This document shows positions 6,924 to 64,000 of a stretch of DNA of 64,000 nucleotides, one piece after another (position 1 is the stretch's first letter; the number at the start of each line of letters is the position of its first letter). The notes below the pieces were generated by a model. It was not told the origin of the DNA and did no database searches. It saw only the letters and a list, made by a program, of their open reading frames with translations. The translations under genes and the position numbers were made by a program. Where the stretch lies: assembly GCA_965261085.1 (NCBI GenBank), contig OZ253442.1, forward strand, positions 512,001 through 576,000, written 5' to 3'. This stretch comes from a bacterium (GTDB lineage: Bacteria; UBA8248).

Positions 6924-6932
6924 CGCCGCTCC

Positions 6933-7952: not shown

Positions 7953-8235
7953 GAACGGCTTCTTTCTCGATATACGGGCGCAACTCCGGACGCAGCGCCT
8001 TATCCGTCACCAGATCGACGGGGCGGCCCAGCAAATCCTCAAGGTAGAACTGGACGCCGAAAAATCGTTTGGACGTAGTGGGGCCGTCGAAGCGAACCAG
8101 AACGTCCACGTCGCTGTCGCTCGCCGCTTCATCACGGACAGTCGATCCGAAGAGCGCAATGTCGGCGACGCCGAACTGCTCCGCCAGTACGGACTTGTGC
8201 GCCCGCAACAGCGTCAGGGATTTGTCTTTATCCAT
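7945..8235 (-). CDS. mntA: Minimal nucleotidyltransferase antitoxin (MntA)
   Basis: LFGSTVRDEAASDSDVDVLV (GS-X10-DXD), GRPVDLVT; overlaps the HEPN gene. Confidence 0.92.
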   Translation of the reverse strand: MDKDKSLTLLRAHKSVLAEQFGVADIALFGSTVRDEAASDSDVDVLVRFDGPTTSKRFFGVQFYLEDLLGRPVDLVTDKALRPELRPYIEKEAVRV

Positions 8236-8527
8236 TGTATTCTCCGTCATCTTACGCTTACAAAATTTTCCACCTCTCAAAATACCGCGTCCCTCTCGCC
8301 CTGTCATCCGGCGTCTTGCAGCCACCTCCCCATTAACCGAACCTCTCCCCACCGGTGACGCAAAAACGATGCCGTGATATAAGTTTCGTAATTGGAACAA
8401 TGAAACGAGGAAGCACGAATTTCGAAGAAGTTCTGGATAAAAAAATCCGTTTTTCTCGATTTTCCCGCGCCACCCCTCAATAGATGCACGCACGATAACT
8501 TCTGATTTCCCGTAAGGAGAACGCCTC

Positions 8528-9712: not shown

Positions 9713-9739
9713 CGGGACCGGACTCTCCTCCATTGCCCA

Positions 9740-9783
9740 CTGCGGCGTCCCGGCTCTCTCGCGAGAGAGTCGGGACGCCGCAG
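9740..9783. repeat. 44-bp near-perfect palindrome (terminator-like or REP-like)
   Basis: CTGCGGCGTCCCGGCTCTCTCG-CGAGAGAGTCGGGACGCCGCAG with one G-T mismatch and no U-tract. Confidence 0.7.
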
Positions 9784-9831
9784 CAAACACCGTTTCAGCC
9801 GCTATTCTCGGCGGATGCGTCTTGCGTTCGC

Positions 9832-9860
9832 TTGACAACCCCCACCACAAGACTAACAAT
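9832..9860 (+). promoter_or_regulatory. Possible sigma70-type promoter for the exporter operon
   Basis: TTGACA at 9832 with an AACAAT-like -10 at 17-bp spacing. Confidence 0.35.
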
Positions 9861-10293
9861 TTCAATACGTAATAGGGGCAGGCACGTACTGAAGCCGGCG
9901 GCGCGCGCCGCCGATTACTTCGGGGAGACGATATCGGATGCTGGAACCGAAACCGGCGGATGATCGTTCGGGCGGGTAGGTACGCCCAATCGCTCGAATC
10001 GCCGCCTCGGACGTGGGCGATGCGCTCGACGCCCTCGGTCGATCGGAAGCCGCACGAAGAAACAGGACACGCAACGCCCAGGCGTGCATGTCCCCTGTTC
10101 GCGGCGGCCCCCGAAGGCTGAATCCCGAGACGTCTCCCGCGCGGGCAACGCTGAAAACCAAGACCACAGGAGCAGACTCAAGCCGCATCATCGGCGCTCC
10201 CGGATGAATCGTCTTTCGGCGGAAAGTAAACGAAAGACGCGCGATTCGCCCGTTCCGCTTTGCCTCCCAACCTGCAATTCCCGGTGATCAGGT

Positions 10294-11526
10294 GTGGAGA
10301 GACTGAATCTGTTCCGAAAAAAAGCGCTCGAACGTCTCTCGACGCCCGAGCGGCTCGACCGCACCCTATCGGTGACCTCGGCCAAGGGGTGGCTCGCGCT
10401 GCTCACCCTGATCGCGATAATCGCCGCAACACTCCTCTGGTCGTTCAAGGGCGAGGTATCGAGCTACGTCACCGCCCCCGGCATGCTGATTAGGCGCGGG
10501 GGGGCGCTCGTGGCGGCGGCCGCTGAGCGGGTGGGCGCGGTGACCGGGCTGATGCACGGCGTCAACGATAAAGTGAAGAGAGGAGACGTTCTCGCCATAC
10601 TCCTCAACAAGGAGTTGAAAGAGCGCCTTCGCGCCACGCGGGACCTGGTGCGTGAGCGCACCGGGACGCTGGCGACGTTCAAGGCGGCGGAAAAAGCCGA
10701 AACCGCCCTGATGAGCAGGAACACCGCCAGGCAGTACGCGCGCCTGGCGGAGATGGAGCGCAGCGCCCGCCAGATGCTCGAAACCTACCGCAGAGCGTAT
10801 GAGGAGAGCATCGTCGCCAAAGAGGCTATCGAGCGCAGCCGACAGGCTTTCGACGACGCCCGGCGCGCGCTTTTCGGCATCCTGCGCGAGCGCGACGAAC
10901 TGGAATTTGCAGAACTTCAGCGCCGCAACCGGAGCGAGGCCAGAATCATCGAAAAGCAAGCGAGTCTCGAGGCGGCCAAACGCGAAGCGAGCAGGCTCGA
11001 AACCCTCATCGACACCCACCGGATTCTGGCTCCGGTCTCGGGCCGCATAGCCGAACTCAAGGTGAGTGTCGGCGCCGTGCTCAAGGCGGGCGATTCCCTG
11101 CTCAGCATCAAGACGGGAGAGGAGACGCTCGAGGCGCTCATCTACGTTCCGCCCGAGAAGGGGAAAGACGTCGCGCCCGGCATGGAGGTTCTGGTCTCTC
11201 CCGCCAACACGACGAAAGAAGAACACGGCTACGTACTCGGACGAGTAGGAGAAATTTCCGATCTGCCGGCGAGCCTCCAGGGCATGATCGCCACCCTGCA
11301 AAACCCCGAACTCGCGCGGAGGTTCTCTGCGAGCGGGCCGCCATACGCCGCCCGCGTCATCCTCGAGCCCGATCCGTCGACGGCCAGCGGCTTCGCGTGG
11401 ACCTCGCCCAAGGGCGAGAGCCGGACGCTTTCTTTCGGCACGCTGGTGAACGTCGAGATAAAGACCGAAAAGCGCGCGCCCATCACCCTCGTCGTCCCCT
11501 CGCTCAAGGAGGTGCTGCGGCCTTGA
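10294..11526 (+). CDS. NHLM (nitrile-hydratase-leader) bacteriocin system secretion protein, HlyD family
   Basis: N-terminal LFRKKALERLSTPERLD, single TM helix, coiled coil, FAWTSPKG and RAPITLVVP C-terminus. Confidence 0.9.
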   Translation: MERLNLFRKKALERLSTPERLDRTLSVTSAKGWLALLTLIAIIAATLLWSFKGEVSSYVTAPGMLIRRGGALVAAAAERVGAVTGLMHGVNDKVKRGDVLAILLNKELKERLRATRDLVRERTGTLATFKAAEKAETALMSRNTARQYARLAEMERSARQMLETYRRAYEESIVAKEAIERSRQAFDDARRALFGILRERDELEFAELQRRNRSEARIIEKQASLEAAKREASRLETLIDTHRILAPVSGRIAELKVSVGAVLKAGDSLLSIKTGEETLEALIYVPPEKGKDVAPGMEVLVSPANTTKEEHGYVLGRVGEISDLPASLQGMIATLQNPELARRFSASGPPYAARVILEPDPSTASGFAWTSPKGESRTLSFGTLVNVEIKTEKRAPITLVVPSLKEVLRP

Positions 11527-11528
11527 GC

Positions 11529-13715
11529 GTGGACCTGAGGGAAAGGGCCAATATCCCGAGGCGCGGGGGCCGGCGCGCGACACCCGTCATCCTCCAGATG
11601 GAAGCGACCGAGTGCGGCGCAGCCTGTCTGGCGATGGTCCTCGCCCACTACGGACGCTGGGTGCCGCTCGAGGAATTGCGTGTTCGCTGCGGCGTATCAC
11701 GCGACGGCAGCCGGGCGGACAGCGTGCTCCGCGCGGCGCGCGAATACGGCCTCATCGCGAGCGGCTTCAGGTGCGAGCCGGAGGATCTGCGCAAATTCCC
11801 CTTCCCGCTCATCGTCTTCTGGAATTTCAATCACTTCATCGTGGTCGAGGGCTTCAGGAAAGGCCGCTACTACGTCGTAGACCCCGCGCACGGCCCGCAA
11901 CAGATGTCCGCCGAGGAGTTCGACGAGGGATTTACGGGCATATGCCTGGCGTTCTCGCCGGGGCCGGACATGCGCCGGGGCGGCTCGCGCCCCAGCGCCT
12001 GGCGCGGCATCTTCTCCCGCCTGGAGGGCGCGCGCGCCCCCCTGTTCTTCGCGATCCTGGCCACCCTGGCGCTCACGGCGCCGGCCCTCGCCACCGCGAC
12101 GCTCATCAAGGTGTTTATCGACAACGTGCTGATCCCCGGAAGCGACACCTGGGTCACGCCCGTGCTGGCGGGTCTCGCCATCGCCGCCGTTTTACAAGGC
12201 CTGCTCGTCTGGATGCAGCAGGTCTCCCTCGCCCGCATGGAGATCAAGCTCTCCCTCGTCATGACCACACGCTTTTTCTGGCATATCCTGACCCTGCCGA
12301 TGACTTTCTTCGGCCAACGCTTCATCGGCGACATCTCAAACCGCGTGGCGTTGAACGAAAGGGTCGCGCAACTGCTCTCGGGCCAACTGGCGACAAGTGC
12401 TCTCGGCGTACTCAGGATGGGCGCCTTCGCCGTCGTCATGTACGCCTACGACGCGCAATTGACGCTGGTCGCGTTCGCCATCGTCGTCATCAACCTCCTG
12501 GCGCTTCGTGTCGTCTCGCGCGCGAGGCAAAACGGCGTGCGACGCCTGCTCAAGGAACAAAGCAAGGTGGCGGGCGTGACGGTCAACGGGCTGTACATGA
12601 TCGAGACGGTGAAGGCCAACGGCTCGGAGGGGGAATTCTTCGCCCGCTGGTCGGGAATGAACGTCAACGCCCTCGTAGCCCAGCAGGAGCTGAGCCGCCT
12701 GACGGGGCTTCTCGGCCTGATTCCCCCGTTCCTCTCGGCGCTCGGCACGGTGGCTATTCTCGGCGTCGGGGGACTGCGCTTGCTCGAAGGGGAGATCACC
12801 GTGGGCTCCCTGGTGGCGTTCCAACTCCTCACGCAGCAGTTCCTCGCGCCCATTGCGGGAATCGTGCAGTTCGGCGCCAATTACCAGACGGCGCAGGGCG
12901 ATCTCGCCCGGCTGGACGACGTGCTGCGCTACGAACCCGACGAGCGGGCCGTGAAAGCCGTGAGCGGGCCGCCTCGGGAAGCGCCCGAGCCGATGCGGGG
13001 CCGCGTCACCTTCGAGAACGTCACCTTCGGCTACAACGCCCAGGAACCGCCGCTCATCAAGGATTTGAGCTTCTTCATCCCGCCCGGACAGCGCGTCGCC
13101 CTGGTCGGCGGTTCAGGAAGCGGAAAATCGACCGTCGCGCGGCTGCTGGCGGGCCTCATACATCCCTGGTCCGGAGAGGTCGCCATCGACGGGCGCTCGG
13201 TGGATGAAATTCCCTCGAGCCATTTTTCCGGAATGCTCTCCTACGTCGATCAGGATATCGCTCTCTTCGAGGGCACCGTGCGGGAGAACGTGACCCTGTG
13301 GAACCCGACCATCGAGGAAAACCAGGTCACGCGCGCCCTGCGTGACGCCGCGGTCCACGCCGAGATCATGTCCCGCCTCGGCAAGTACGACGCGCTGGTC
13401 GAAGAAGGCGGACGCAACTTCAGCGGCGGACAGCGCCAGCGCCTCGAGATTGCGCGCGCGCTCGCGAGCGACCCGGCCGTCCTCGTCCTGGACGAGGCCA
13501 CGGCGGCCCTCGACCCCGTAACCGAGACCGGCATCGACGATCACCTCCGCCGGCGGGGCTGCACCTGTCTCATCGTCGCCCATCGGCTGAGCACGGTGCG
13601 GGATGCGGATGAGATTATCGTTCTCGCGGAGGGCGCCGTCGTCCAGCGCGGAACGCATGAAGACCTCATCGCCGATAAGGACGGCGTCTACTACTCTCTG
13701 GTCACCTCGAGTTGA
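11529..13715 (+). CDS. NHLM-type ABC transporter with C39 peptidase domain (PCAT)
   Basis: QMEATECGAACL (catalytic Cys), NHFIVV, VDPA; GGSGSGKS, FSGGQRQ, LVLDEAT; start GTG 11529 or TTG 11523. Confidence 0.93.
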   Translation: MDLRERANIPRRGGRRATPVILQMEATECGAACLAMVLAHYGRWVPLEELRVRCGVSRDGSRADSVLRAAREYGLIASGFRCEPEDLRKFPFPLIVFWNFNHFIVVEGFRKGRYYVVDPAHGPQQMSAEEFDEGFTGICLAFSPGPDMRRGGSRPSAWRGIFSRLEGARAPLFFAILATLALTAPALATATLIKVFIDNVLIPGSDTWVTPVLAGLAIAAVLQGLLVWMQQVSLARMEIKLSLVMTTRFFWHILTLPMTFFGQRFIGDISNRVALNERVAQLLSGQLATSALGVLRMGAFAVVMYAYDAQLTLVAFAIVVINLLALRVVSRARQNGVRRLLKEQSKVAGVTVNGLYMIETVKANGSEGEFFARWSGMNVNALVAQQELSRLTGLLGLIPPFLSALGTVAILGVGGLRLLEGEITVGSLVAFQLLTQQFLAPIAGIVQFGANYQTAQGDLARLDDVLRYEPDERAVKAVSGPPREAPEPMRGRVTFENVTFGYNAQEPPLIKDLSFFIPPGQRVALVGGSGSGKSTVARLLAGLIHPWSGEVAIDGRSVDEIPSSHFSGMLSYVDQDIALFEGTVRENVTLWNPTIEENQVTRALRDAAVHAEIMSRLGKYDALVEEGGRNFSGGQRQRLEIARALASDPAVLVLDEATAALDPVTETGIDDHLRRRGCTCLIVAHRLSTVRDADEIIVLAEGAVVQRGTHEDLIADKDGVYYSLVTSS

Positions 13716-13719
13716 GGCC

Positions 13720-16641
13720 ATGGCGGCGATAGACGACATCATCAGGCAAATCCGGGGCAGACCCTTCGAGGCGGGCGCCCATCGTTCGCTCTCGCTCCAC
13801 GACCCCGAACAAGTCTACCTCGTCGCACAAGGGCATCTGGATATATTCACGGCCGAGTTCAAAGGCGAGGAGGTAGTGAGCCGAAGGCCCTTCACGACCC
13901 GCATCCCCGAGGGTTCGATAGGCTTCGGCGCGCCGCGCGCAAGCGGCGTGGAATCTGATTTCGGTTTCCTGGCCGTGCCGTCTCAGAACGCGGTTATCGT
14001 CGAGGGAGAGCGCGAGGGCCTGACCGAGGAGGGCATTTTCGACATCAACCTCATCCTCTCGCTCGACGAGTGGGTCTCGCGCCTTTCCGAGCTTCTGGTT
14101 CGCGCCTCACCACCGGTCTCGCGAGACGCCATGCTGCTCGAAGCCGACCCGGACGTGCCCTATCCGGGGGGCGCCACGCTGAGCGCGCACCACTCCGACG
14201 TCGTATGGATTTCGGCCGACCAGCCGGTGCGGCTCATGGGGCGTGAGGAGATGGTCCTGCCGGCGGGCGAGGTCTTGCCGCTTTGCGAGCGCACCTGGGT
14301 CGAGACCGGCGAGAAAGAAACCAGGGTGTCGGCCTCTCACACGCCGCGCCTCCTTGTCGACGAAATGCTCTGGCCCGCTCTCTACCGCTTCAGCGAGTCG
14401 ATTCTGCTCTACGCGGGAAGGATGCGCGAGGAGAGCGCCGCCGCCCTGAGCGAGCGTCATGAGGAGGTCCGCGAAGCCCATAGCGCCGCGGGCCGGATCG
14501 CGCGGTGGAACCTCGGAGGGGTGCTGGGGTCCGCCGAGGAGGAACGCGCGCGCGATGCGACCGGCCTCGCCGCCGCCGAGGCGGCGATGAGCCTCGTCGC
14601 CGAGTCGGTCGGCGCGGAAATCAATTTGCGCGGGGGGGAGGAGAAAAACGATGACCCGCTACAGGCTTTTGAGACGATTGCGCGCCGCTCCGGCGTGAGC
14701 GCCCGAGAGATCGCCCTCGCCCCTGATTGGTGGAAGCACGACGGTCCCTCCTTCGCCGGGGTGACAAAAGACGGGAAAAGCCCGATTGCCGTGCTCTCGA
14801 ACGGAGGCGGCCGCTATACCGCCGTCGATCCGGCGACGAACCACTCCTACGCCGTCGGGCGCCGCAACGCCGCCCAGATCGAAAACCGGGGCGTGATGCT
14901 CTATGCGCCTTTCAAGGCTGAGGTCCGCGACGGGTCCTCGGCGCTGCGCGACGTGATGCGCAGGCGAACGAGAGACATCCATAGCATGTTCTCCATGAGC
15001 CTGCTCGCAGGCCTGGTGGCTCTCGTGACGCCGCTGCTGACCGGGCGCCTGCTCGCCGACATCATCCCGCGCATCGACATGCCGATGTGGATCGCCGCCC
15101 TGGGTGCATTGCTGTTCGCCGCGCTGGGCGCCACCGCCTTCCAACTGGTGCGCTCCTACGCGATGCTGCGCGTCGAAGGGCGGCTGGGCGAAGATCTGCA
15201 AAGCGCTCTATGGAGCCGGCTGCTGGCGCTCTCTGTGAGATTTTTCCGTCTGTATTCCGCCGCCGATCTGGCCGACCGGCTGGGCGGCGTGACGCGGATG
15301 CGGATGATGCTGGCGGGCGGGGCCATGAACGCCATCATGAGCGGCATTTTCTCCGTCTTCAGCTTCGCCCTGCTGCTCTACTACAGTTGGCGACTCGCGC
15401 TCGCCGCCGCCACGATGGTATTGGCGCTGCTGCTGGCGAGCGCCCTCTTCTCCTATTTGCAAATGAAGCGCCATCGCGCAGCCTTTGCGATGAAGGGCAC
15501 CATCGACGCGACGATCTTCCAGACCATCACCGGCCTCGCCAAACTCCGCATGGCGAACGCCGAGCCCTACGTCCTCGCGCGCTGGGCCGAACAATTCGCC
15601 GGGCAGCAGCGCGAAACGCTGAGCGCGCGCAAATGGGCGGCGGCCCAGTTCGCCTTAAACGGCCTGTTCATCCCGATGGCCTCATTCGTGCTGCTCGCCA
15701 TGATCTGGCATCTGCTGGTCGACGCCGCCTCGCCCGCGTCGTTCGGCCTGCTCGACTTCCTCGTCTCCTTCACCGCCTTCGGGCAACTGGCGGGGGCGAT
15801 GGCGGGGCTGACGGGCGCGGCGGCGACGGTGATCGCCGTGATTCCCCTCTTCGAGCGCGTGAAGCCGGTGCTCGAGGCGGAACCGGATACCGCCATGGGT
15901 GACATCGATCCGGGGGATTTGACCGGCGAAATCGAACTCTCCGGCGTCTCCTTCCGCTATCACCCCGATGGCGAAAACGAGCTGACGAACATATCGCTGC
16001 GGATTGAGCCGGGCGATTACGTGGCGATCGTCGGCGCGTCGGGTTCGGGCAAATCGACCATCTACCGCTTGCTCCTCGGCTTCGAGCGTCCCGATTCGGG
16101 AGCGATATTATTCGACGGCCATGACTTGTTGAGCCTCGACCTGGGCGCGGTGCGCAGCCACATGGGGGTCGTCCTCCAGAACGGTCAACTCATCGCCGAC
16201 AGCATCTACAGCAACATCGCGAGTTCTTCGCAGTTGAGCATGGAGGACGCATGGGCGGCCGTGCGCGCGGCGGGTCTCGAAGAGGATGTCCAGGCGATGC
16301 CGATGGGGCTGCACACGGTGCTCCACGAGGGAGGCGGCGGACTCTCCGGCGGCCAGAAACAGCGCCTGCTCATCGCCCGGGCGCTTGCCCGCAAGCCTCG
16401 CATCCTGATGTTCGACGAGGCGACCAGTTCTCTGGACAACCGCACCCAGGCCATCGTTCAGGAGGCGCTGGGCAAGCTGAGCATCACGCGCCTGGTGATC
16501 GCCCATCGGGTGAGCACCGTGCGCGAGGTCGACCGCATCTACGTGCTGGACAAAGGCGGGATCGTCGAGAGCGGAAACTACAACGAACTCATGACCATAG
16601 ACGGCGCTTTCGCGAAACTGGCCAAACGCCAGTTGACGTAA
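13720..16641 (+). CDS. NHLM-type ABC transporter permease/ATP-binding subunit with long N-terminal extension and no C39 cysteine
   Basis: GASGSGKS, LSGGQKQ, MFDEATSSLDN; third member of the canonical trio. Confidence 0.9.
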   Translation: MAAIDDIIRQIRGRPFEAGAHRSLSLHDPEQVYLVAQGHLDIFTAEFKGEEVVSRRPFTTRIPEGSIGFGAPRASGVESDFGFLAVPSQNAVIVEGEREGLTEEGIFDINLILSLDEWVSRLSELLVRASPPVSRDAMLLEADPDVPYPGGATLSAHHSDVVWISADQPVRLMGREEMVLPAGEVLPLCERTWVETGEKETRVSASHTPRLLVDEMLWPALYRFSESILLYAGRMREESAAALSERHEEVREAHSAAGRIARWNLGGVLGSAEEERARDATGLAAAEAAMSLVAESVGAEINLRGGEEKNDDPLQAFETIARRSGVSAREIALAPDWWKHDGPSFAGVTKDGKSPIAVLSNGGGRYTAVDPATNHSYAVGRRNAAQIENRGVMLYAPFKAEVRDGSSALRDVMRRRTRDIHSMFSMSLLAGLVALVTPLLTGRLLADIIPRIDMPMWIAALGALLFAALGATAFQLVRSYAMLRVEGRLGEDLQSALWSRLLALSVRFFRLYSAADLADRLGGVTRMRMMLAGGAMNAIMSGIFSVFSFALLLYYSWRLALAAATMVLALLLASALFSYLQMKRHRAAFAMKGTIDATIFQTITGLAKLRMANAEPYVLARWAEQFAGQQRETLSARKWAAAQFALNGLFIPMASFVLLAMIWHLLVDAASPASFGLLDFLVSFTAFGQLAGAMAGLTGAAATVIAVIPLFERVKPVLEAEPDTAMGDIDPGDLTGEIELSGVSFRYHPDGENELTNISLRIEPGDYVAIVGASGSGKSTIYRLLLGFERPDSGAILFDGHDLLSLDLGAVRSHMGVVLQNGQLIADSIYSNIASSSQLSMEDAWAAVRAAGLEEDVQAMPMGLHTVLHEGGGGLSGGQKQRLLIARALARKPRILMFDEATSSLDNRTQAIVQEALGKLSITRLVIAHRVSTVREVDRIYVLDKGGIVESGNYNELMTIDGAFAKLAKRQLT

Positions 16642-54459: not shown

Positions 54460-54659
54460 AACCCTAACTCATTGTAAATGCTTTTGTTCTGTTTCTATGC
54501 CGCCGATTTTATTTATCGAAAAACATCGTGAATTTATCGTATTTTTCAGGAATTCGCTCGGCTCCGAACGTGCCGACTCGCGGGGAAATCCCGCCACGCT
54601 CCCAGGCTTTCGGCATGATGCCAAATGCGGGGAATTGCGTGGTCAAACGCGACAGATCA

Positions 54660-56181
54660 GGGGTTGTTGAAAAACCCCTGACTCTATGCTTGGATGTATG
54701 GATATTACGCGCCCGAGAAGGGAATATCCGCGATGTTGGGACGCAAGAACCGCGCCCAGATGGATTTGTTCATCACCGGTTCGCTGGAGAGGTTGATTCC
54801 CGAGGATCACATATTGGCCCGCGTGAACCGCGTTCTGGACCTGAGTTGGCTGCGCGAGGAAGTGGCGGATTGTTATTGCGCGGACAACGGCCGTCCTGGG
54901 ATCGACCCCGAAGTGGCGGTTCGGTTGATGTTGGCGGGCCTTCTGCTGGGGTTCGTGCACGACCGTCGGTTGATGCGCGAGGCGCAGGTGAACATCGCGA
55001 TCCGGTGGTTCATCGGTTACGGGCTGGAGGATCGGCTGCCGGATCATTCGAGCCTGACGCGGATACGGCAGCGCTGGGGGGAGGCCCGGTTCCGGGAGAT
55101 ATTCCGCCGCACGGTCCGTGCGTGCCTGGATGCGAAGGTGGCCAAGGCCGAAGTCGTGCACGTGGACGCCTCATTGATCCGCGCGGACGTGAGTTGGGAG
55201 AGTCTGGTGGAGCGTCACGTGGACGAGGTGATAGCGGAGAACCCCGTCGAGGAGGAGGCCGGGAAGAAGGGTGGAGGAGGCCGCCGTGGCGGGGGTTCCG
55301 GGAAGGTGAGCCGGACGGACCCGGACGCGCGGCTGGCGAGAACGGGCGGGGGATTCGAGCCGAGCTACAAGCAGCACGCTGTGGTGGACGACACGCGCGG
55401 GGTGGTGCTCGACGTATCGGTGACGGAGGGTACGGTGAACGAGCGTGAGGTGCTCGAATCGCAGGTGGAAGCGGTATGCGAGGTATCGGGGCGCGCGCCC
55501 GCGATGGTGACGGCGGACTCTGGCTACGCCTACTCGAAGGTCTACGCGGCCCTGGAGCGCCGGGGTGTGGCCGCGCTCATTCCGGCGAAGAGGGAACCCT
55601 CGCAGAGCCGTGTTCCGTTGCGCCTGTTCCGCTACGACGCGCGGCACGACATCGTGAAGTGTCCGCGCGGCAAGATACTGAGCCCCCGTCGGCCCGCAAA
55701 GGGGGGGCGTTATTATCGTTCGAAGACCCGTGATTGCGCGGGCTGCGCGCTTCGCGAGGATTGCCTGCCGAAGGCGTGGTCGAGCAAGGTGGTGTTGGTT
55801 CCGCATGCGTATCCGGCGCTGTTGCGCGCGCGCCGGCGCCATGCGCGATGGAGGGAGGAGGAGCGGCGGATGTACCGGCGTCATATGTGGCGCTCGGAGG
55901 GCTACCACGGCGAGGCGAAGACCTGGCACGGGCTTGCGCGCGCGGTGCGGCGCGGTCTTGAGAACATGAAGATACAGTCCTACCTGACGGCGGCGGCGAT
56001 CAACCTCAAGCGGCTCTCCGCCGCACTTGCTGCAAGGTTATTCGCCCTCTGGAGGGCCTGGTCGGCCCGGGAAGAGCCTCTGTGCGTCCATCGCGGCCTC
56101 GCAAGCTGCGTGGGCTTCCTGTCCGCCGCCGCGTGACCCTCCATACCGCCCGCTCCCGAAACCGGGTTATTCAACAACCCC
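54660..56181 (+). mobile_element. IS1182-family insertion sequence, apparently intact
   Basis: 18-bp terminal IRs GGGGTTGTTGAAAAACCC / GGGTTATTCAACAACCCC (1 mismatch); 5-bp direct repeat GATCA at 54655-54659 and 56182-56186. Confidence 0.92.
54733..56136 (+). CDS. IS1182-family DDE transposase
   Basis: GRPGIDP, LPDHSSL, VDAS, TDPDA, ADSGY, Cys cluster, AAAINLKRL. Confidence 0.93.
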   Translation: MLGRKNRAQMDLFITGSLERLIPEDHILARVNRVLDLSWLREEVADCYCADNGRPGIDPEVAVRLMLAGLLLGFVHDRRLMREAQVNIAIRWFIGYGLEDRLPDHSSLTRIRQRWGEARFREIFRRTVRACLDAKVAKAEVVHVDASLIRADVSWESLVERHVDEVIAENPVEEEAGKKGGGGRRGGGSGKVSRTDPDARLARTGGGFEPSYKQHAVVDDTRGVVLDVSVTEGTVNEREVLESQVEAVCEVSGRAPAMVTADSGYAYSKVYAALERRGVAALIPAKREPSQSRVPLRLFRYDARHDIVKCPRGKILSPRRPAKGGRYYRSKTRDCAGCALREDCLPKAWSSKVVLVPHAYPALLRARRRHARWREEERRMYRRHMWRSEGYHGEAKTWHGLARAVRRGLENMKIQSYLTAAAINLKRLSAALAARLFALWRAWSAREEPLCVHRGLASCVGFLSAAA

Positions 56182-56265
56182 GATCAGGGAGCGATTGCGG
56201 TTTCCGGCCGGGGAGCTCGGGCTTCCCCGATGAGCGGGAACCGCGAAAACCACGTTTCAACCACT

Positions 56266-56287
56266 GGGTCAGGCCGCGACCTGACCC
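56266..56287 (-). terminator. Hairpin just downstream of the FGE-family gene
   Basis: GGGTCAGG-ccgcga-CCTGACCC. Confidence 0.5.
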
Positions 56288-56296
56288 TGCCGCCCA

Positions 56297-57139
56297 TCAC
56301 CCTCCTCCCGCGCCGGTCCTTCTCACCACCCCCACCACCGCCGGTCGGGCGCAGCGGAACCCCACCCCGTGGTTCGACTCATAAGGCGCGTAGCCGGTGC
56401 GAAAGGCGGAGCGCATCAGAAAGCGGCTGTTGAACCACGCGCCGCCGCGCAAGACTTTCACGCTGCCCGCACCCGGTCCTTTCGGGTTTTTCCCGGGCAT
56501 GTGCGCGTAGAAATTCCCCCGGTACCAGTCCGCCACCCACTCCATCGCGTTTCCCGCCATGTCCATCGCGCCGTAAGGACTCGCTCCCAGCGGCCTGCCG
56601 CCTACGCTCCATGTGGCGAACCCCTTGCTGCAGGAGGGAATCTCACCGCCCATGACGGCCCGCGCGCACGTCGCCCGCTCGTTTCCCCACGGGTAGATGC
56701 GCCCATCGCTACCGCGCGCCGCCTTTTCCCACTCCGCCTCGGTGGGCAGGCGCCTGCCCACGCGCGCGCAATAATCGCGCGCCTGAAACCAGGTGACGCC
56801 CACGACGGGCTGCTCGGGTTCTTCGAACGAACCCGCGTAGCGATCGGCCGGAGCAAAGAACTTGCGGAAGCGCCGGTTGGTCACCTCGTATTTGTCGATG
56901 TAGAAGGCTTTCAGGTATATCCGGCGGCGCGGCGTTTCGTTGTCGCCGAAAATGTAGCCGCCCGGAGCCGAACCCATCACGAATTCTCCCGCAGGCACGA
57001 GAACAAGTGGCGCGCCGTCTGTGCCTGTGATTTGTTTAGGCAGCCCCGCGCCTCGGGCGATGCCCACAAATGCCGCCGTCAAGACGAGCGCGAGGAGAGA
57101 GGCAAGCAGAATCGAGTTTTGGGGGTCTCGGCGCATCAT
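56297..57139 (-). CDS. Exported FGE-sulfatase/SUMF1 family protein, non-catalytic type (full-length copy)
   Basis: Signal peptide, FVMGS, YEVTN, RLPTEAEWE, DMAGN, RGG, GFRC; lacks the FGE catalytic Cys pair. Confidence 0.9.
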   Translation of the reverse strand: MMRRDPQNSILLASLLALVLTAAFVGIARGAGLPKQITGTDGAPLVLVPAGEFVMGSAPGGYIFGDNETPRRRIYLKAFYIDKYEVTNRRFRKFFAPADRYAGSFEEPEQPVVGVTWFQARDYCARVGRRLPTEAEWEKAARGSDGRIYPWGNERATCARAVMGGEIPSCSKGFATWSVGGRPLGASPYGAMDMAGNAMEWVADWYRGNFYAHMPGKNPKGPGAGSVKVLRGGAWFNSRFLMRSAFRTGYAPYESNHGVGFRCARPAVVGVVRRTGAGGG

Positions 57140-57248
57140 GAACGCTCACAAGGCGGTAAGTATCCTCTCCTTTTTATATTATAGACGATGACAGACTTGA
57201 AAACGGGGCGCGGAGTTCGATGTGGGATAAGGTACGTCCCGAACAGCC

Positions 57249-57376
57249 GTAGGGGCGGGCCCCCGTGCCCGCCCGTGTAATATGAGGACGCCACACAGAA
57301 CGCCACAGGGACAACACGCCATGTTTGTCCCACTCCGAGCGGCGCGAGCAGGACAGACTCAGAGGCCTGTCCCTAC
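57249..57376. repeat. GTAG-type REP doublet with spacer
   Basis: GTAGGGGCGGGCCCCCGTGCCCGCCC ... GGACAGACTCAGAGGCCTGTCCCTAC. Confidence 0.75.
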
Positions 57377-57395
57377 GGGTGGATGGTTCTCCTTC

Positions 57396-57422
57396 GTCAT
57401 TCCGGCGGATGCCGGAATCTAG
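57396..57422. repeat. CGTC-type REP-like palindrome
   Basis: CGTC-ATTCCGGCggatGCCGGAAT-CTAG; a degenerate partner CTGGATTCC lies near 57445. Confidence 0.5.
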
Positions 57423-57582
57423 GCGGACGAGAGTCACATCAGTTCTGGATTCCGACCTTGAACTGGGGAATCGATTTCATAGTTGAGCAAGGTTGGTAGA
57501 ACGCCAGGTTTTTTGACACAATAGCATAACAATAGTGGTGTTCATGATGAGTAGAAACGGTTAACTCGAAGGCAGTATAGAT

Positions 57583-58752
57583 ATGGTCGAGCGAATAAGA
57601 GCTTCCAATATCGGGCCAGTCAATGAAGCGGATATCCGCTTCGGTGACGTTACAATATTCGTCGGCCCGCAGGCGACCGGAAAAAGTATCTTCTTGCAAC
57701 TCCTGAAACTGCTTGTAGACAAAACTGCAATACACAAGACCATGAAGCACTTCGGCTTGGCGCAGCGCGGCCGCGGCAATGCGAGCACCTTTTTCGATCT
57801 GTATTTCGGCGAAGGCATGGCATCGATCTGGTCGGAGGAGAACAGCAAACTGCTCTTGGGGCAGGCAAGCAAGCCTACTGATCTAACGGTCTACACACGC
57901 CCAAGCCGGCTCGATATTTCGGAAAAACTCTTTTATATACCCGCTCAACGGGTCATGAGCCTGCGCGACGGCATGACCCGTCCGTTTACGGATTACCGGG
58001 CAGGTGACCCCTTCGTTCTGCGGGATTTCAGTGAAAAGCTGCATGGCATCGTACAAAACGAAATCGGTCTCGATGAAGATGTCTTCCCACGCCCGCAACG
58101 TTTGGCGGCGACACTGCGAGAGCCTTTGGAAAAACATATTTTTGGGGGTTTCGGGTTGCGCACGGATACGTCGGGGCACCAGGGGCGTCTGGTTCTGAAT
58201 CAGAGTAACGGTCGCAATCTGCCTTACCTCGTATGGTCGGCCGGGCAGCGTGAATTCGTGCCGCTGTTGCTTGGGCTTTATTGGCTTCTACCGCCGTCCA
58301 AAACGCCGACCCGCGACGATATTGAATGGGTTGTGATCGAAGAACCGGAAATGGGGCTACATCCGAACGGAATCGGAGCAGTTCTCAACCTTGTCATGGA
58401 ATTGCGGTTGCGCGGTTACCGCGTTTGCATTTCCACTCATTCGCCCCATGTCCTCGATGTCATATGGGCGCTGCGCTTCTTTCAGGAGAACGGCGGAGAA
58501 ACCGGAGATGTTCTGAAGCTTCTCGGCCTTGCTCGCAATAACAAAACGCGGAAATTGTCTGGTGCTGCTCTAACGAGCGAGTTCAGAACATATTATTTCA
58601 AACGGGACGGCTTTGTTCATGACATATCCGACCTCGATCCCGGATCGGATGATATCGCTGAAGGAGGCTGGGGTGGTCTCACCGAATTCTCCGGCAATAT
58701 AGGGGACATTGTCGCTGAAGTCGCTAACCGCCTGCCGACCGATGCGTCATGA
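57583..58752 (+). CDS. Soluble ABC-type ATPase (AAA_15/AAA_21 class)
   Basis: NIGPV, GPQATGKS, YIPAQR, SAGQ signature, IEEPEMGLHP, STHSP; lower GC. Confidence 0.9.
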   Translation: MVERIRASNIGPVNEADIRFGDVTIFVGPQATGKSIFLQLLKLLVDKTAIHKTMKHFGLAQRGRGNASTFFDLYFGEGMASIWSEENSKLLLGQASKPTDLTVYTRPSRLDISEKLFYIPAQRVMSLRDGMTRPFTDYRAGDPFVLRDFSEKLHGIVQNEIGLDEDVFPRPQRLAATLREPLEKHIFGGFGLRTDTSGHQGRLVLNQSNGRNLPYLVWSAGQREFVPLLLGLYWLLPPSKTPTRDDIEWVVIEEPEMGLHPNGIGAVLNLVMELRLRGYRVCISTHSPHVLDVIWALRFFQENGGETGDVLKLLGLARNNKTRKLSGAALTSEFRTYYFKRDGFVHDISDLDPGSDDIAEGGWGGLTEFSGNIGDIVAEVANRLPTDAS

Positions 58753-59231
58753 CCTTCAAGAAGGCGGTCGAGGCCGCGCCGCCCCCGGTGAATCTCGCGT
58801 ATTGTCCCGGGAAACAGGCCTTGGAGAACAGACATCGCGGACTAGTGACATGCACCGATTCACGACGGCTGACCGGGAGTATCTATCTGGACTCGGCCTT
58901 GGCGCAAGAGCCGGGTTACACCGATAAACCGCGTTGGGATTACAGTCTCGGCTACAAGCCACAGAACGGACGGGAACACGCGGTATGGGTAGAAGTGCAC
59001 TCGGCGACGACAAAAGAAGTTTCTGCGGTTCTCAAGAAACTGCAGTGGCTACGGGACTGGTTGAATAGCGAAGCCGAGCAACTCAAGAAGATGACAGATT
59101 TCGCCAAAAACGACATTCGTTTCGTGTGGATTGCCAGTTCCAGTGTCAAAATTCTTCAGAATTCCCCTCAAGCCCGGCGGCTCAGCCAAAGCGGTATCCG
59201 AGGTGTGAAGAAGTGTCTTAAGTTGCCATGA
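58749..59231 (+). CDS. Hypothetical basic protein, possible restriction-endonuclease-like fold
   Basis: ATGA overlap with the ATPase; RWDYSLGY ... WVEVHSA motif. Confidence 0.7.
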   Translation: MTFKKAVEAAPPPVNLAYCPGKQALENRHRGLVTCTDSRRLTGSIYLDSALAQEPGYTDKPRWDYSLGYKPQNGREHAVWVEVHSATTKEVSAVLKKLQWLRDWLNSEAEQLKKMTDFAKNDIRFVWIASSSVKILQNSPQARRLSQSGIRGVKKCLKLP

Positions 59232-59290
59232 TTTGTCACCACCCCTCGGATAGAGATTGCCATTGGACGAGGACGACTCTCTTTATGGAT

Positions 59291-60040
59291 TCATCGAACG
59301 GTGCGAAAGGCGGAGCGCATCAAAAAGCGGCTGTTAAACCACGCGCCGCCGCGCAAGACTTTCACGCTGCCCGCACCCGGGCCTTTCGGGTTTTTCCCGG
59401 GCATATGCGCGTAGAAATTCCCCCGGTACCAGTCCGCCACCCATTCCATCGCGTTTCCCGCCATATCCATCGCCCCAAAAGGACTCGCGCCCAGCGGCCT
59501 GCTTCCCACGCTCCAGGTGGCGAACCCCTTGCTGCAGGAGGGAATCTCACTGCCCATGACGGCCCGCGCGCACGTCGCCCGCTCATCCCCCCACGGGTAG
59601 GTGCGCCCATCGCTACCGCGCGCCGCCTTTTCCCACTGCGCCTCGGTGGGCAGGCGCCTGCCCACGCGCACGCAATAATCGCGCGCCTGAAACCAGGTGA
59701 CGCCAACGACGGGCTGCTCGGGCTCCTCGAACGAGCCCGCGTAGCGATCGGCCGGAGCAAAGAACTTGCGGAAGCGCCGGTTGGTCACCTCGTATTTGTC
59801 GATGTAGAAGGCTTTGAGGTATATCCGGCGGCGCGGCGTTTCGTTGTCGCCGAAAATGTACCCGCCCGAAGCCGAGCCCATTACGAAATCCCCCGCCGGA
59901 ACGAGGAGCAGGGGTGCGCCGTCCAGGCCGGTGATCTGCTTGGGTAACTCCGCGCCCCGGGCGACGCTCACCCACGCCGCCGCGAGAAAGAGTGTTAGGT
60001 AAACGGTGAGTGGAAAATGGTTCTTGCGACCCTGAAACAT
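59291..60040 (-). pseudogene. 3'-truncated duplicate of the FGE-family gene
   Basis: About 12 aa differences from 56297-57139 over the mature domain; ends RSAFRTVR-stop and lacks the GFRC terminus; start 60040 inferred from alignment. Confidence 0.75.
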
Positions 60041-60127
60041 CGTGGATACCCGCAAGGCGGAAAGTATTTTCATCCTTCATATTATAGACGATGAACGGCC
60101 CCTACTTGGTAAATGAACAAACGGATT

Positions 60128-60444: not shown

Positions 60445-62142
60445 GTGAAAACCGCACTGACCCTCATCGCCACCCTTTGTGTTTTCCTCATGGCGCAGTC
60501 TACGCATGCCGCGCGCGGAGCAGACGGGCGCCTGCGCATCATCTATTGGCAGGCGCCCTCCACCATGAACCCCTATCTATCGGGCGGCACCAAGGAGATA
60601 GAGGCCGCATCGCTGGTCCTGGAGCCCCTCGCGCGCTACGACCAGAACGGCGACATGAGACCCTGGCTCGCCGTACAAGTTCCCACGCTGGAAAACGGCG
60701 GCGTGGCGGCGGATTTGCGGAGCATCACCTGGAAACTCAAGGGCGGCGTCAAATGGGCCGACGGGACGCCGCTCACGGCGAAGGACGTGGTTTTCACGTG
60801 GAAATACTGCACGCATCCCCAGGGGGGCTGCTCCCAAAGCGAGAAATACAACGACGTGAAAAACGTGGAGGCCTTGGGCCCGCGAACGGTGCGCGTGACC
60901 TTCGGCGTCGCGAAACCCTTTCCCTACGGGCCGTTCGTCGGCGCGCAAGCCCCGATCATCCAGGCCGCGCAGTTCGCCGACTGCCTGGGCGCCAAGGCGC
61001 CGCGCTGCACCAACGCCAACTTCAAGCCCGTGGGCACGGGGCCGTTCGTCGTATCTGAATTCCGCCCGAACGACGTCATCTCCTTCGCCGCCAACCGCCA
61101 CTACCGCGACCCGGCCAAGCCGGCCTTCGCGCGGGTGACCTTCAAGGGAGGCGGCGACGCGGCGGCGGCGGGCCGCGCGGTGCTCGAGACCGGCGAGTTC
61201 GACTACGCCTGGAACCTGCAACTCGCCCCGGACGTGCTGGCGAACATGCGCAAGGCGGGCAAGGGGGTGGTCATCTCCTCGTTCGGCACGCTGGTCGAGC
61301 GTATCATCATGAACCTCACGAATCCGGATCCTAAACTCGGCAAGGAGCGATCCACCGCCAAACACCCCCACCCGTTCTTATCGGACATCCGCGTGCGCAA
61401 GGCGCTCTCGATGGCCATCGACAGAAAGCTGCTTGTGGAGATCGGCTACGGCGCGGCGGGCAGGCCGACGTGCAACATCCTCCCCGCCCCCGCCATTTAT
61501 AAGTCCACCGCCAACGATGCGTGCCTCAAACAGGACATCCCCGGCGCGAACAAGCTGCTCGATGCGGCGGGCTGGAAGCGCGGGGCAGGCGGCGTGCGGC
61601 GCAAGGGGGGCGTGAAACTCTCGATTCTCTACCAGACTTCCACCAACGCCGTGCGCCAGGATTTTCAGGCGCTCATCAAGCAGTGGTGGTCCAAGATCGG
61701 GGTCGAGACGGAGCTCAGGAACATCAGCGCCTCGGTGTTTTTCGGCGGCGACCCGGGAAGCGGGGACACGTTCCAGAAATTCCGCGCCGACGTGCAAATG
61801 TACGCGAATAACTTCGACGGCACCGACCCTGAATCCTACATGGCGAACTGGGCGTGCAAGGAAGCGCCTCGTCCCGCCACCCAGTGGCAGGGCAACAACA
61901 TGCCGCGCTACTGCGACGCCGCCTACGACGCGCTCGTCGCCAAGATGGCGCGCGCGGGCGCGCTTAAAGAGAGGGCCCGTCTCGCCAAAGCCATGAACGA
62001 CAAGCTCATGCAGGCCTACGCCCTCATTCCGCTTGTCGACCGCGGCCGCGTATCGGCCCATGCCAAAACGCTGGGCGGCGTCATCCTCAACACCTGGGAT
62101 TCGGAATTGTGGAACATCGCCGACTGGCGCCGCGTCAAGTAG
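60445..62142 (+). CDS. Peptide ABC transporter substrate-binding protein, family 5
   Basis: Signal peptide, WQAPSTMNPYL, GVKWADGTPLTA, GTGPF. Confidence 0.95.
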   Translation: MKTALTLIATLCVFLMAQSTHAARGADGRLRIIYWQAPSTMNPYLSGGTKEIEAASLVLEPLARYDQNGDMRPWLAVQVPTLENGGVAADLRSITWKLKGGVKWADGTPLTAKDVVFTWKYCTHPQGGCSQSEKYNDVKNVEALGPRTVRVTFGVAKPFPYGPFVGAQAPIIQAAQFADCLGAKAPRCTNANFKPVGTGPFVVSEFRPNDVISFAANRHYRDPAKPAFARVTFKGGGDAAAAGRAVLETGEFDYAWNLQLAPDVLANMRKAGKGVVISSFGTLVERIIMNLTNPDPKLGKERSTAKHPHPFLSDIRVRKALSMAIDRKLLVEIGYGAAGRPTCNILPAPAIYKSTANDACLKQDIPGANKLLDAAGWKRGAGGVRRKGGVKLSILYQTSTNAVRQDFQALIKQWWSKIGVETELRNISASVFFGGDPGSGDTFQKFRADVQMYANNFDGTDPESYMANWACKEAPRPATQWQGNNMPRYCDAAYDALVAKMARAGALKERARLAKAMNDKLMQAYALIPLVDRGRVSAHAKTLGGVILNTWDSELWNIADWRRVK

Positions 62143-62181
62143 GCCCGCGCGCCGCTTAGGGCCACCGAGGCTTACCAACCG

Positions 62182-63189
62182 ATGGCGACCTACACGTTCA
62201 GGCGGCTGCTCATCGCCGTACCCACGCTCATCTTCATCAGCCTCGTCATATTCCTGCTCTTAGACCTCGCGCCAAGCGACCCGACGGCGAACCTCCCCCT
62301 CACGATTCCGCCCGAGGTGCGCCAGAAAATCCGCGAGTCCCTAGGATTAGGCGAGCCCATCCACATCCGCTATCTGCTGTGGTGCAAGCAGTTTTTCATC
62401 AACGAACCGCTGAACGTGCTCGACGCCCTGCTCGGCCACGCGGGCGACTCCGAGCGGCTCCGCGTGTTGAGTTGGCAGACGCGCTCCCCGGTCGTCGACT
62501 TGATCGTCGAGCGCTTGCCGCAGACGCTTTGGGTCGTGGGGCTCTCCTACGTCATCGGCGTCTTGATCGCGATACCCATCGGCATCTTCTCGGCCTACCG
62601 ACAATATAGCTGGTTCGACCAGATAGGCACTTTCGTCTCCACCGTGGGGTTTTCCGTGCCGACGTTTTTCACCGGCGTGTTGCTGATCGTGGTCTTCTCT
62701 GTAGGACTCGGCTGGTTCCCCTCCATCTATGACACCACGCACCGCGTGACGGACTGGAGCAGCTTTCTCGTCCAGGTGCGCCAGATGGCCATGCCGGTCT
62801 TCGTACTCGCCCTGTACAACGCAGCGCAAATCAGCCGGTTCATGCGCGCCTCCATGCTCGAGAACTTAAGCCAGGACTACGTGCGCACCGCCCGGGGCAA
62901 GGGCTTTCACGAGCGGCGGATTCTCTTCGTCCACGTCCTGCGCAACTCGATGATTCCCGTCGTCACCATCATCGCGCTGGGCGTGCCGCAGGTGTTCGGG
63001 GGGGCGATCATCACCGAGCAGATCTTCAAGGTGAACGGGCTGGGGCAGTTGCTCATCGTCGCCATCCAGGGGGGGGATCTCCCGACCGTCCAGACGCTGA
63101 CCTTCATCTTCGCGGTGCTGATCGTGGCGTTCAACCTCGTCGCCGACATCCTCTACGGGGTTCTGGACCCCACCATCCGCTATGACTAG
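62182..63189 (+). CDS. Peptide ABC permease (OppB/DppB-like)
   Basis: DYVRTARGKG, ITEQIF, LDPTIRYD. Confidence 0.95.
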   Translation: MATYTFRRLLIAVPTLIFISLVIFLLLDLAPSDPTANLPLTIPPEVRQKIRESLGLGEPIHIRYLLWCKQFFINEPLNVLDALLGHAGDSERLRVLSWQTRSPVVDLIVERLPQTLWVVGLSYVIGVLIAIPIGIFSAYRQYSWFDQIGTFVSTVGFSVPTFFTGVLLIVVFSVGLGWFPSIYDTTHRVTDWSSFLVQVRQMAMPVFVLALYNAAQISRFMRASMLENLSQDYVRTARGKGFHERRILFVHVLRNSMIPVVTIIALGVPQVFGGAIITEQIFKVNGLGQLLIVAIQGGDLPTVQTLTFIFAVLIVAFNLVADILYGVLDPTIRYD

Positions 63190-64000
63190 CCTACGGCGCG
63201 GGGTCTGGGCGCAGTTCCGCACCCACCGGGGAGCGATGATAGGGGCGGGGATCCTGCTCATCGCAGCGCTCGCCGTGGTGTTCGGCCCGCATCTGTGGAG
63301 CATCGACCCGCACCTCATCGACATACCCGCGCGCAATCAGGGCCCCGGCCTCGCCCATCCGCTCGGCGCCGACCGCCTGGGCCGCGACACCCTGGCCCGC
63401 ATGCTCGCGGGCGGGCAGGTCTCGCTCGCGGTGGCGGGCGCCGCCATGGGCCTGGCCCTTTCCCTGGGCGCGGTCATCGGCGTGGCGTCCGGCTACTTCA
63501 GGCGGCTGGACGGCCCGCTCATGCGGCTGACGGATCTCTTCTTAGCACTTCCGCTCCTGCCCCTTCTGCTCGTGATCATCGCGCTGTTCCGCGACGCCCT
63601 GCGCTCCGCCTTCGGCCCTGAGACCGGCATCTTCATCCTCATCGCCTCGGTCATCGGCGCGACCTCCTGGATGAAGACCGCCCGCATCGTGCGCGGAGAG
63701 GTGCTCACTCTCAAAGAGCGCGAATTCGTCCTCGCCTCGGGCGCGGTGGGAGCGCCCACGAAGCGCATCATCTTCCGCCACATCCTGCCGGGCGTCGTCT
63801 CGCCCATCATGATCTCCGCCGCCCTCGGGGTGGGCGACGCCATCATCACAGAATCCGCGCTCTCGTTCCTGGGTCTGGGCTTTCCGCCGGATTTCCCCAC
63901 CTGGGGAAGGCTGCTTTACGATTCGACCGATTACCTCCAGCAATACCCGGAGCGCGTGCTGTGGCCCGGCCTCGCGATTTCGCTCACCGTGCTGAGCATC
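63182..64000 (+). CDS. Peptide ABC permease (OppC/DppC-like), runs off the window
   Basis: ATG 63182 overlaps the previous gene; HPLGADRLGRD, TESALSFLGLG read directly from the sequence. Confidence 0.9.
   Translation, partial: MTSLRRGVWAQFRTHRGAMIGAGILLIAALAVVFGPHLWSIDPHLIDIPARNQGPGLAHPLGADRLGRDTLARMLAGGQVSLAVAGAAMGLALSLGAVIGVASGYFRRLDGPLMRLTDLFLALPLLPLLLVIIALFRDALRSAFGPETGIFILIASVIGATSWMKTARIVRGEVLTLKEREFVLASGAVGAPTKRIIFRHILPGVVSPIMISAALGVGDAIITESALSFLGLGFPPDFPTWGRLLYDSTDYLQQYPERVLWPGLAISLTVLSI

Follow-up and report, generated by a model that had tools for sequence, protein, structure and literature searches.

In bacterial immunity, one of the main themes is the pairing of an ATP-binding cassette (ABC) ATPase with a nuclease, as in Septu, PARIS, Gabija and HEC-02. 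The first three share a logic of sensor ATPase and nuclease, the nuclease being of the HNH type (PtuB) or of the TOPRIM type (AriB, GajA, OLD). HEC-02 joins an ABC ATPase to a NERD nuclease of the PD-(D/E)xK class; it is experimentally active and needs both genes, according to the accessible part of the preprint that describes it (bioRxiv 10.1101/2024.01.29.577857). The same preprint, in its accessible part, catalogues phage defence candidates (PDCs) by guilt-by-embedding, and these were added to the PADLOC database. Here, we analyse a stretch of 64,000 nucleotides from a bacterium of the lineage UBA8248 (assembly GCA_965261085.1, contig OZ253442.1, positions 512,001 to 576,000 of the forward strand), referred to below as the window. 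At positions 57583 to 59231 it carries a cassette of two genes, A and B, encoding an ABC-type ATPase and a small basic putative nuclease, which an original prediction had put forward as a candidate new anti-phage or toxin–antitoxin (TA) system. Judged by their profile matches, both genes are intact and belong to the PADLOC family PDC-M56; they represent a new instance, not a new system.

The pair was already listed in the catalogue and is not newly discovered here, and the value of this particular instance is modest. The interest lies with the family. PDC-M56 would add a minimal version to the ATPase–nuclease theme, namely a 389-residue ATPase with a 160-residue, stand-alone, Can2-like nuclease that has a histidine in place of the catalytic lysine. 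The family is large, strongly conserved and spread across phyla, and its B protein has no Pfam entry, making it a good and cheap target for a defence assay. It is likewise a target for structural work on the gating of a nuclease by an ABC ATPase.

Assignment to PDC-M56

Protein A matches the PADLOC profile PDC-M56A at E 3e-140 and 465.5 bits, with residues 3–382 lying on positions 2–379 of the 382-position profile. Protein B matches PDC-M56B at E 2.4e-45 and 152.1 bits (residues 2–155 on positions 7–147 of 151). The PDC-M56B match in B is the single one in the whole genome, and B has no other PADLOC match at E ≤ 1. The next-best PADLOC matches of A are far weaker, being AriA (3.6e-16), HEC-01A, NsnB and Old (1.6e-12), all within E 1e-16 to 1e-12, with GajA further down at 8e-8. 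A search of A and B against NCBIfam gave nothing near any cut-off. Both profiles are matched, nearly over their full length, by adjacent genes forming one cassette, and therefore the system is not a new one. On this point the original prediction fails; it had proposed that the lack of a PADLOC hit would support novelty, and the search came out positive. At the family level we see no difference between the pair and PDC-M56, in which the “M” presumably stands for multi-gene; the instance in the window is solo and not embedded in another defence system.

The cassette consists of the following parts.

57583–58752, plus strand: gene A, a 389-residue soluble ABC-type ATPase (PADLOC PDC-M56A; Pfam AAA_21/AAA_15)
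58749–59231, plus strand: gene B, a 160-residue basic protein (PADLOC PDC-M56B) with a putative restriction-endonuclease-like fold
57419–57582, plus strand: AT-rich upstream region, which travels with the cassette and has DNA homology to other loci
57395–59310, plus strand: cassette DNA common to three loci of the same genus (blastn)

The coordinates and lengths of the two open reading frames (ORFs) are exactly as first given. Gene A ends and gene B begins within one ATGA, an overlap of 4 nucleotides on the same strand, and B has an isoelectric point (pI) of 9.77, which confirms the proposed coupling of the ATPase to a 160-residue basic protein.

Pairing, selection and spread

The pair was compared with 24 loci taken from species-representative genomes (designated by L numbers). 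It had been considered that the pair might not be conserved; this is not so, as in 23 of the 24 loci an A homologue stands directly upstream of B, its end at the beginning of that gene, while in the 24th the contig reaches only 159 bases upstream. The 4-nucleotide overlap is kept in 17 of the 22 loci examined. The ratio of nonsynonymous to synonymous substitution rates (dN/dS), relative to the window copy, is 0.10–0.27 for A and 0.12–0.43 for B, and both genes are under purifying selection.

The hosts of these loci are labelled as members of the Alpha- and Gammaproteobacteria, Thermodesulfobacteriota, Binatia, Terriglobia, Blastocatellia, Verrucomicrobiota, Bacteroidota and Planctomycetota. 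The cassette DNA of the window is 80–82% identical to that of Terriglobia, Binatia and Thermodesulfobacteriota loci (L005–L007, L009), with dS values of 0.5–0.8. Such DNA identity, together with low dS across phyla, indicates recent transfer between phyla; the cassette is horizontally mobile across them. Among the relatives of the host it is patchy: 3 of 22 other genomes of the same genus carry it, and a search of 38 further relatives found none. When only host-phylum genomes with a completeness of 90% or more are counted, the figures are 3 of 20 for others of the same genus and 0 of 25 for other genera. The host phylum is sparsely sampled, with 46 genomes at least 90% complete, 21 of them in the host's genus. 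One B homologue, of 44.5% identity, was found on a plasmid, a mobilizable one from Opitutaceae.

Two loci also hold damaged copies. L009 has a second, partial cassette at 2651–3884, in which A starts from residue 134 and B from residue 6, and L011 carries a decayed copy at 5819–6978, with A split into two frames and B intact.

The composition of the cassette sets it apart from its surroundings. The GC content of 57400–59399 is 0.49–0.58, against 0.655–0.693 at 55000–56999 and 0.66 at 59400–59999; just upstream of A, the 400 bases at 57400–57799 have a GC content of 0.492, the minimum of the table covering 50–64 kb. At third codon positions the GC content (GC3) is 0.59 in A and 0.63 in B, against 0.78–0.89 in most neighbouring genes. 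The GC table and GC3 together bear out the lower-GC cassette with an AT-rich upstream region that had been noticed at the outset. By blastn, three same-genus loci align with the window at 57419–59307 (L001, 91%), 57395–59273 (L002, 87%) and up to 59310 (L003, 91%). DNA comparison places the start of upstream homology at 57419 in L001, 57488 in L007 and L009, 57503 in L006 and 57538 in L005. The AT-rich region may act as a promoter. It contains, within the run TTTTTTGACACAATA, a TTGACA-like hexamer that is conserved in the alignment of same-genus, Binatia and Terriglobia loci; a scan for consensus promoters upstream of A gave none on the plus strand. An Rfam scan of 57100–59400 returned only a sub-threshold isrK match (24 bits against 50), which we take as chance.

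The ATPase, protein A

Pfam places A in AAA_21 (E 6e-15, 56.5 bits against a cut-off of 27) and also in AAA_15, not in ABC_tran. The protein holds a Walker A motif (GPQATGKS, residues 28–35), a Q-loop (Q122), a signature motif (SAGQRE, 219–224), a Walker B motif (VVIEE, 250–254) and an H-loop (STHSP, with H286). All five are invariant in an alignment of 23 sequences, made of the window protein and 22 relatives translated from other genomes, with L011 (frameshifted) and L024 (cut contig) left out. The Walker A, SAGQ, EEP and THS motifs initially reported for A are therefore all present and invariant.

The AlphaFold model of A has a predicted local distance difference test score (pLDDT) of 77.6. 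A Foldseek search of the model against the PDB gave 124 matches at E ≤ 1e-3, topped by the retron Eco8 effector (E 6e-7), with PtuA of Septu and of retrons, Rad50, GajA and SMC heads among the other leading matches. The ABC ATPase fold of A is nearest to those of Septu, PARIS, Gabija and the OLD/retron Eco8 effectors, at E 6e-7 to 2e-5. The TM-scores reach only 0.34–0.43, and therefore the core is shared and the inserts are not; at 389 residues, A is shorter than these ATPases and has its own inserts and a C-terminal extension. Pfam, PADLOC and Foldseek agree with the proposal of a soluble ABC-type ATPase from a defence-associated clade.

The least conserved parts of A are residues 81–120 and 301–340. 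Variable inserts of such ATPases have been proposed to set trigger specificity, as the available text of the preprint puts it (bioRxiv 10.1101/2024.01.29.577857), and by analogy the variable parts of A may be determinants of trigger specificity. At the C-terminus, a strongly conserved motif, LDPGSDDIAEGGWGGLTEFS, spans residues 352–370 (about 58636–58692 of the window), with D352, W363, G364, G365, F369 and S370 invariant. It overlaps the lowest-confidence part of the model, where pLDDT falls below 50 at residues 358–368. Residues 352–370 are a candidate flexible contact or sensing loop. A prediction of the complex of A and B (alignments A2 and A1) scored 0.01 against a mark of 0.32, which is evidence neither for nor against an interaction.

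The small partner, protein B

Protein B contains the motifs RWDY and WVEVH. It was aligned with 136 further proteins of 145–182 residues, chosen by length from 268. Across these 137 sequences, with identities as low as 33%, S44, D64, E82, H84 and K97 do not vary, and the pI exceeds 8 in 133. The family is large, with 824 clusters at 50% identity in an exhaustive search at E ≤ 1e-3, and 286 clusters at 90% identity among 338 word-sharing candidates.

The model of B is of high confidence (pLDDT 97.7, predicted TM-score 0.92). In it, D64 opens the strand 65–69, E82-V-H84 lies in the strand 77–86, and K97 lies in the long helix 88–108. This order of strands and helices fits the PD-(D/E)xK core, with the histidine standing where lysine is expected. 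When B was compared with all PDB representatives by VIA-align, the leading matches were VC1899 (Z 6.4, 126 residues aligned), Card1 (6.4) and Can2 (6.1 and 6.0), followed by Upx, an XisH-like protein, AF1548, Cdn1, NucS, Cfr10I, SfsA and Cap4. Almost every one of the leading structures is a PD-(D/E)xK nuclease. A second structural search gave Can2 and Cdn1 at Z 6.3, with 126–128 of the 160 residues aligned and a root-mean-square deviation (rmsd) of 3.5–3.6. The best structural matches of B are thus the nuclease domains of Can2, Card1, Cdn1 and VC1899, overall at Z 6.0–6.4, with 122–129 of 160 residues aligned and an rmsd of 3.5–3.9. From the model, B likely has a restriction-endonuclease-like fold; the fold is likely and not proven because all Z values are under 8. 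The original prediction had compared the D...ExH pattern of B with a PD-(D/E)xK site, and these residues are invariant and sit on the likely restriction-endonuclease-like fold.

Sequence comparison links B to no described nuclease family. B has no Pfam family, and no Pfam family is common to more than 5 of the 137 members; it matches none of the curated PD-(D/E)xK families by sequence; and a profile of the 137 relatives, searched against PDB sequences, reached a best E of 0.69, a chance match. Neither Pfam nor PADLOC found an HNH, TOPRIM, helicase or nucleotidyltransferase signature in B, in agreement with what had been read from its motifs. A Foldseek search against the viral models of BFVD gave no match. 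In the ESM Atlas, B falls in unnamed clusters only, and the nearest named one, PDDEXK_11 at 0.77, is a lead only. A word-based search, which is weak evidence, found no longer fused forms of B. One family representative, P0248, consists of residues 1–217 of an A-like protein joined to B, and is a deletion remnant, not a designed fusion; another, P0246, is without an A-like part.

Comparison with described systems

The pair resembles HEC-02 in consisting of a small ABC ATPase and a separate protein, in the case of B a likely member of the PD-(D/E)xK superfamily, and residues 1–290 of A match HEC-02A at E 2e-8. It differs in that A scores only 32 bits to HEC-02A, versus 465 to PDC-M56A, and in that B shows no HEC-02B or NERD match in PADLOC or Pfam. 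Additionally, B has ExH, whereas NERD has (D/E/Q)xK in the accessible text (bioRxiv 10.1101/2024.01.29.577857).

With Septu, PARIS and Gabija the pair would share the logic of a sensor ATPase and a nuclease, but B belongs neither to the HNH nor to the TOPRIM nucleases. As to Septu, B has no HNH match, and A reaches 13 bits to the NCBIfam PtuA model, whose cut-off is 500. As to PARIS, Gabija and OLD, no TOPRIM or DUF4435 match was found in A or B, and the structural matches of B are not TOPRIM. As to AbiE, neither protein matches an AbiEii or AbiEi profile; the Pfam description of AAA_21 merely bears the name.

The CARF effectors Can2, Card1, Cdn1 and VC1899 give the best structural matches of B, but B is a stand-alone protein of 160 residues without CARF and aligns to their nuclease halves only (residues 129–359 in Can2). 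It further differs from them by a sequence identity of 5–14%, a Z below the clearly specific level and the His in place of Lys.

Proposed mechanism

By analogy with HEC-02, PtuAB of Septu and AriAB of PARIS, a mechanism of an ATPase-gated nuclease may be proposed. A, a small ABC ATPase of the SMC/Rad50 type, would dimerise on ATP and serve as the sensor or gatekeeper. B would be a small, basic phosphodiesterase of the restriction-endonuclease fold, in which D64 and E82 would hold a metal ion; H84, standing where lysine is usual, and K97, from the following helix, would complete the site. Through ATP binding or hydrolysis, A would hold B in check. On an infection cue, A would license B, nucleic acid would be cut, and the phage or the infected cell would be stopped. 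We give somewhat better than even chances to this reading, in which the pair, as a PDC-M56 member, is a horizontally mobile two-gene conflict cassette with an ATPase-controlled nuclease. As in the catalogue, we infer its phage-defence function.

Several observations weigh against it. PDC-M56 is one of 145 “phage defence candidates” that the available part of the catalogue calls untested (Payne et al., bioRxiv 10.1101/2024.01.29.577857), and the name PDC-M56 was not found in the literature searched. In one study that tested PDCs, as far as its accessible text goes, 4 of 8 candidates gave no protection, and in another, to the same extent, PDC-M63AB and PDC-S04 gave none; PDC-M56 is not named among the tested candidates in the accessible text of either. 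The structural Z of B stays below 8 throughout, in a range that the tool warns may reflect only a common arrangement. The Foldseek check suggested for the small protein gave nothing in the PDB at E ≤ 1e-3 (best E 0.07), although its weak list is rich in restriction enzymes and includes MUS81, EndoMS and HamA, none of them significant. The probable equivalence of D64, E82 and H84 to a known active site follows in the model from strand order only, and a histidine in the lysine position is unusual. A search of 50,697 phage records found no B homologue. In 13 of the 24 loci the pair has neither defence nor mobile genes within about 5 kb, and in the window the nearest other PADLOC match is 49 kb from the cassette. 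A literature search on the ATPase–nuclease pair also returned nothing.

Genomic neighbourhoods and possible addiction

Neighbourhood ORFs were called by a crude script of our own; 177 of them, within about 4–5 kb, were scanned with Pfam, and 51, mostly without a clear housekeeping family, with PADLOC. Defence or TA-type genes lie within about 5 kb of the pair in 7 of the 24 loci, as follows.

L007: PIN
L010, 2513–5056: prokaryotic Argonaute (pAgo) pieces and AbiEi/Eii
L015: Fic/SoFic-like
L019: PDC-S24
L021: the pair lies amid a type IIG restriction–modification (RM)-like methylase, an HKD+Snf2 helicase and two PDC-S01 genes
L022: HepT
L023: HipA

In L010, two ORFs match both halves of the class I (short) pAgo profile (E 1e-112 and 1e-50); since they cover separate halves, this is probably one gene that has been split or frameshifted. 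Next comes an AbiEii/AbiEi pair, with ORFs that span only about half of their profiles. In L021, from Verrucomicrobiota, positions 218–15290 hold a co-directional defence string, including the methylase of 1138 residues, the PDC-M56 pair, a HIT-family gene and the helicase, which is DrmD-like and matches PADLOC C3a139 at E 1e-81. This string is an example of the embedding that defined PDC-M56. Mobile-element genes lie near the pair in 7 of the 24 loci (L006, L007, L011, L012, L015, L016, L022) and in the window. The link between the cassette and defence islands is real but moderate, which fits the remark, in the accessible text of the preprint, that embedding-derived candidates associate less with other systems (bioRxiv 10.1101/2024.01.29.577857).

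The same neighbourhoods may be read as those of an addiction module of the TA kind, in which B would be a toxic nuclease and A its ATP-dependent antidote, and the pair would stabilise the mobile DNA that carries it instead of blocking phages. We consider this unlikely, though it is the alternative that fares best. It would suit a cassette that stands alone among housekeeping genes in the window and in the 13 loci mentioned above, that has mobile-element genes nearby in the others just listed, that frequently neighbours TA genes (PIN, HepT, HipA, AbiE), and whose two genes are tightly coupled through the ATGA overlap in most loci. However, A is a 389-residue enzyme with all catalytic ABC motifs conserved, unlike a simple antitoxin. 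Decayed copies also exist, namely L011, with A frameshifted and B kept, and the deletion fusion P0248; they count against addiction because a strong addiction would select against them. Moreover, addiction and defence by abortive infection are not mutually exclusive.

Flanking repeats and possible self-insertion

The duplicated genes said to flank the cassette proved to be two genes with an FGE-sulfatase domain, sharing a direct repeat of 798 bp with 88% identity between the copies. Of 25 contexts, 4 (the window and three other loci) have the cassette enclosed by long direct repeats of host DNA.

56297–57139, minus strand: FGE-sulfatase-domain gene 1 (Pfam E 1e-51)
59291–60073, minus strand: FGE-sulfatase-domain gene 2, shorter (Pfam E 4e-46; the match stops at 236 of 255)
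56395–57191: direct repeat, upstream copy, covering most of FGE gene 1
59299–60094: direct repeat, downstream copy, covering FGE gene 2
L004, 5577–6798 and 8523–9742: repeats of 1222 bp, 94% identity, with two FGE-domain genes
L006, 2753–5181 and 10507–12935: repeats of 2429 bp, 99% identity
L009, 5891–6134 and 9265–9509: repeats of 245 bp, 91% identity

The FGE-domain genes of L004 are only 30% identical in protein to those of the window. RM systems of every type have been reported to insert with long target duplication (Furuta et al. 2010, PMC2853133, in its accessible text). The likeness to these cases lies in a recombinase-free, defence-type cassette between direct host repeats, both of which align with the one copy that a related, insert-free genome has. 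The repeats here are longer, 245–2429 bp versus 46 to about 420 bp in the accessible text of that paper (PMC2853133); they are also diverged (88–99% identity) and restricted to the 4 contexts.

These repeats raise the possibility that the pair mobilises itself as a selfish element, or serves recombination or repair. Like Rad50/Mre11-type or RM-type systems, it would make or process DNA breaks, and this would drive its own insertion with long target duplications. We hold this to be improbable, and a little more so than addiction. Only 2.6% of positions in the window genome lie between comparable repeats, against which 4 of 25 has a binomial P of 0.004; the test, however, was defined after the pattern had been seen, its background is one genome, and some of the loci are kin. 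The cassette contains no integrase or transposase, and Rad50 and SMC heads are among the fold matches of A, as this reading would have it. On the other hand, the other 21 contexts show no such repeats, and in L001 and L003, of the same genus, the cassette occupies the same site but a second FGE copy is missing, so the FGE duplication need not come from the insertion. In the same-genus genome G021, which lacks the cassette, the FGE gene and the downstream binding-protein gene stand 330 bp apart, and in four other cassette-free genomes of the genus this binding-protein gene is preceded by different DNA. Homologous recombination involving the host DNA on either side would suffice, with no activity of A or B needed, and the flanking repeats may equally be explained by recombination with donor flanks.

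In its boldest form, this idea would make PDC-M56 a transposase-free selfish element, whose ATPase and unusual D-ExH-K endonuclease would both fight invaders and drive their own insertion with kilobase target duplications, an idea put forward in the past for RM systems. The chance of that is slim; if true, it would explain why unrelated bacteria (window, L004, L006, L009) have the cassette between long direct repeats of their own genes.

Alternatives that fare worse

It is similarly doubtful, and less probable than addiction, that B does not cut but binds nucleic acid, as an adaptor or regulator whose endonuclease fold has degenerated, with any effect coming from the ATPase. The replacement of the canonical lysine by histidine, fold matches of Z only about 6, the basic character of the protein and the lack of a sequence family link to any nuclease in Pfam or in the PDB-sequence profile search would all fit this reading. 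Against this stand the invariance of S44, D64, E82, H84 and K97 across the family and, in the model, the two acidic residues at canonical metal-ligand positions, a pattern typical of an active site and not of a binding surface.

That A serves as ATPase subunit to the neighbouring peptide-type ABC importer (60445–64000), whose SBP_bac_5 binding-protein and permease genes begin 1.2 kb downstream, is refuted by its AAA_21/AAA_15 and not ABC_tran assignment and by the syntenic empty site in G021, and has a negligible chance given that all 5 cassette-free same-genus genomes examined keep the binding-protein gene, that the pair travels without any transporter in most of the 24 loci, and that A is separated from the importer genes by an FGE gene of opposite orientation.

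Other features of the window

57249–57275: repetitive extragenic palindromic (REP)-like, GC-rich palindrome of the GTAGGGGCGG type, in the gap that separates FGE copy 1 from the cassette
54694–56136, plus strand: insertion sequence (IS) transposase gene (Pfam DUF772, DDE_Tnp_1 and DDE_Tnp_1_6), 1.4 kb upstream of the cassette
7945–8583, minus strand: ORF of 212 residues, of which the C-terminal 95 match PADLOC PDC-S09 (E 3.5e-28)

The GTAGGGGCGG-type motif has 9 matches in the window versus 1.9 expected. The cassette had been described as bounded by REPs; this holds for the palindrome at 57249, but the others, at 60093, 60128 and 60267, all lie beyond FGE copy 2 and not at the cassette edge. 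Synteny with L003 is broken by the IS, as homology stops at 54652 and resumes at 56295. The IS, at 54653–56294, looks like an insertion specific to the window genome, and belongs to the mobile surroundings of the pair, not to the pair itself.

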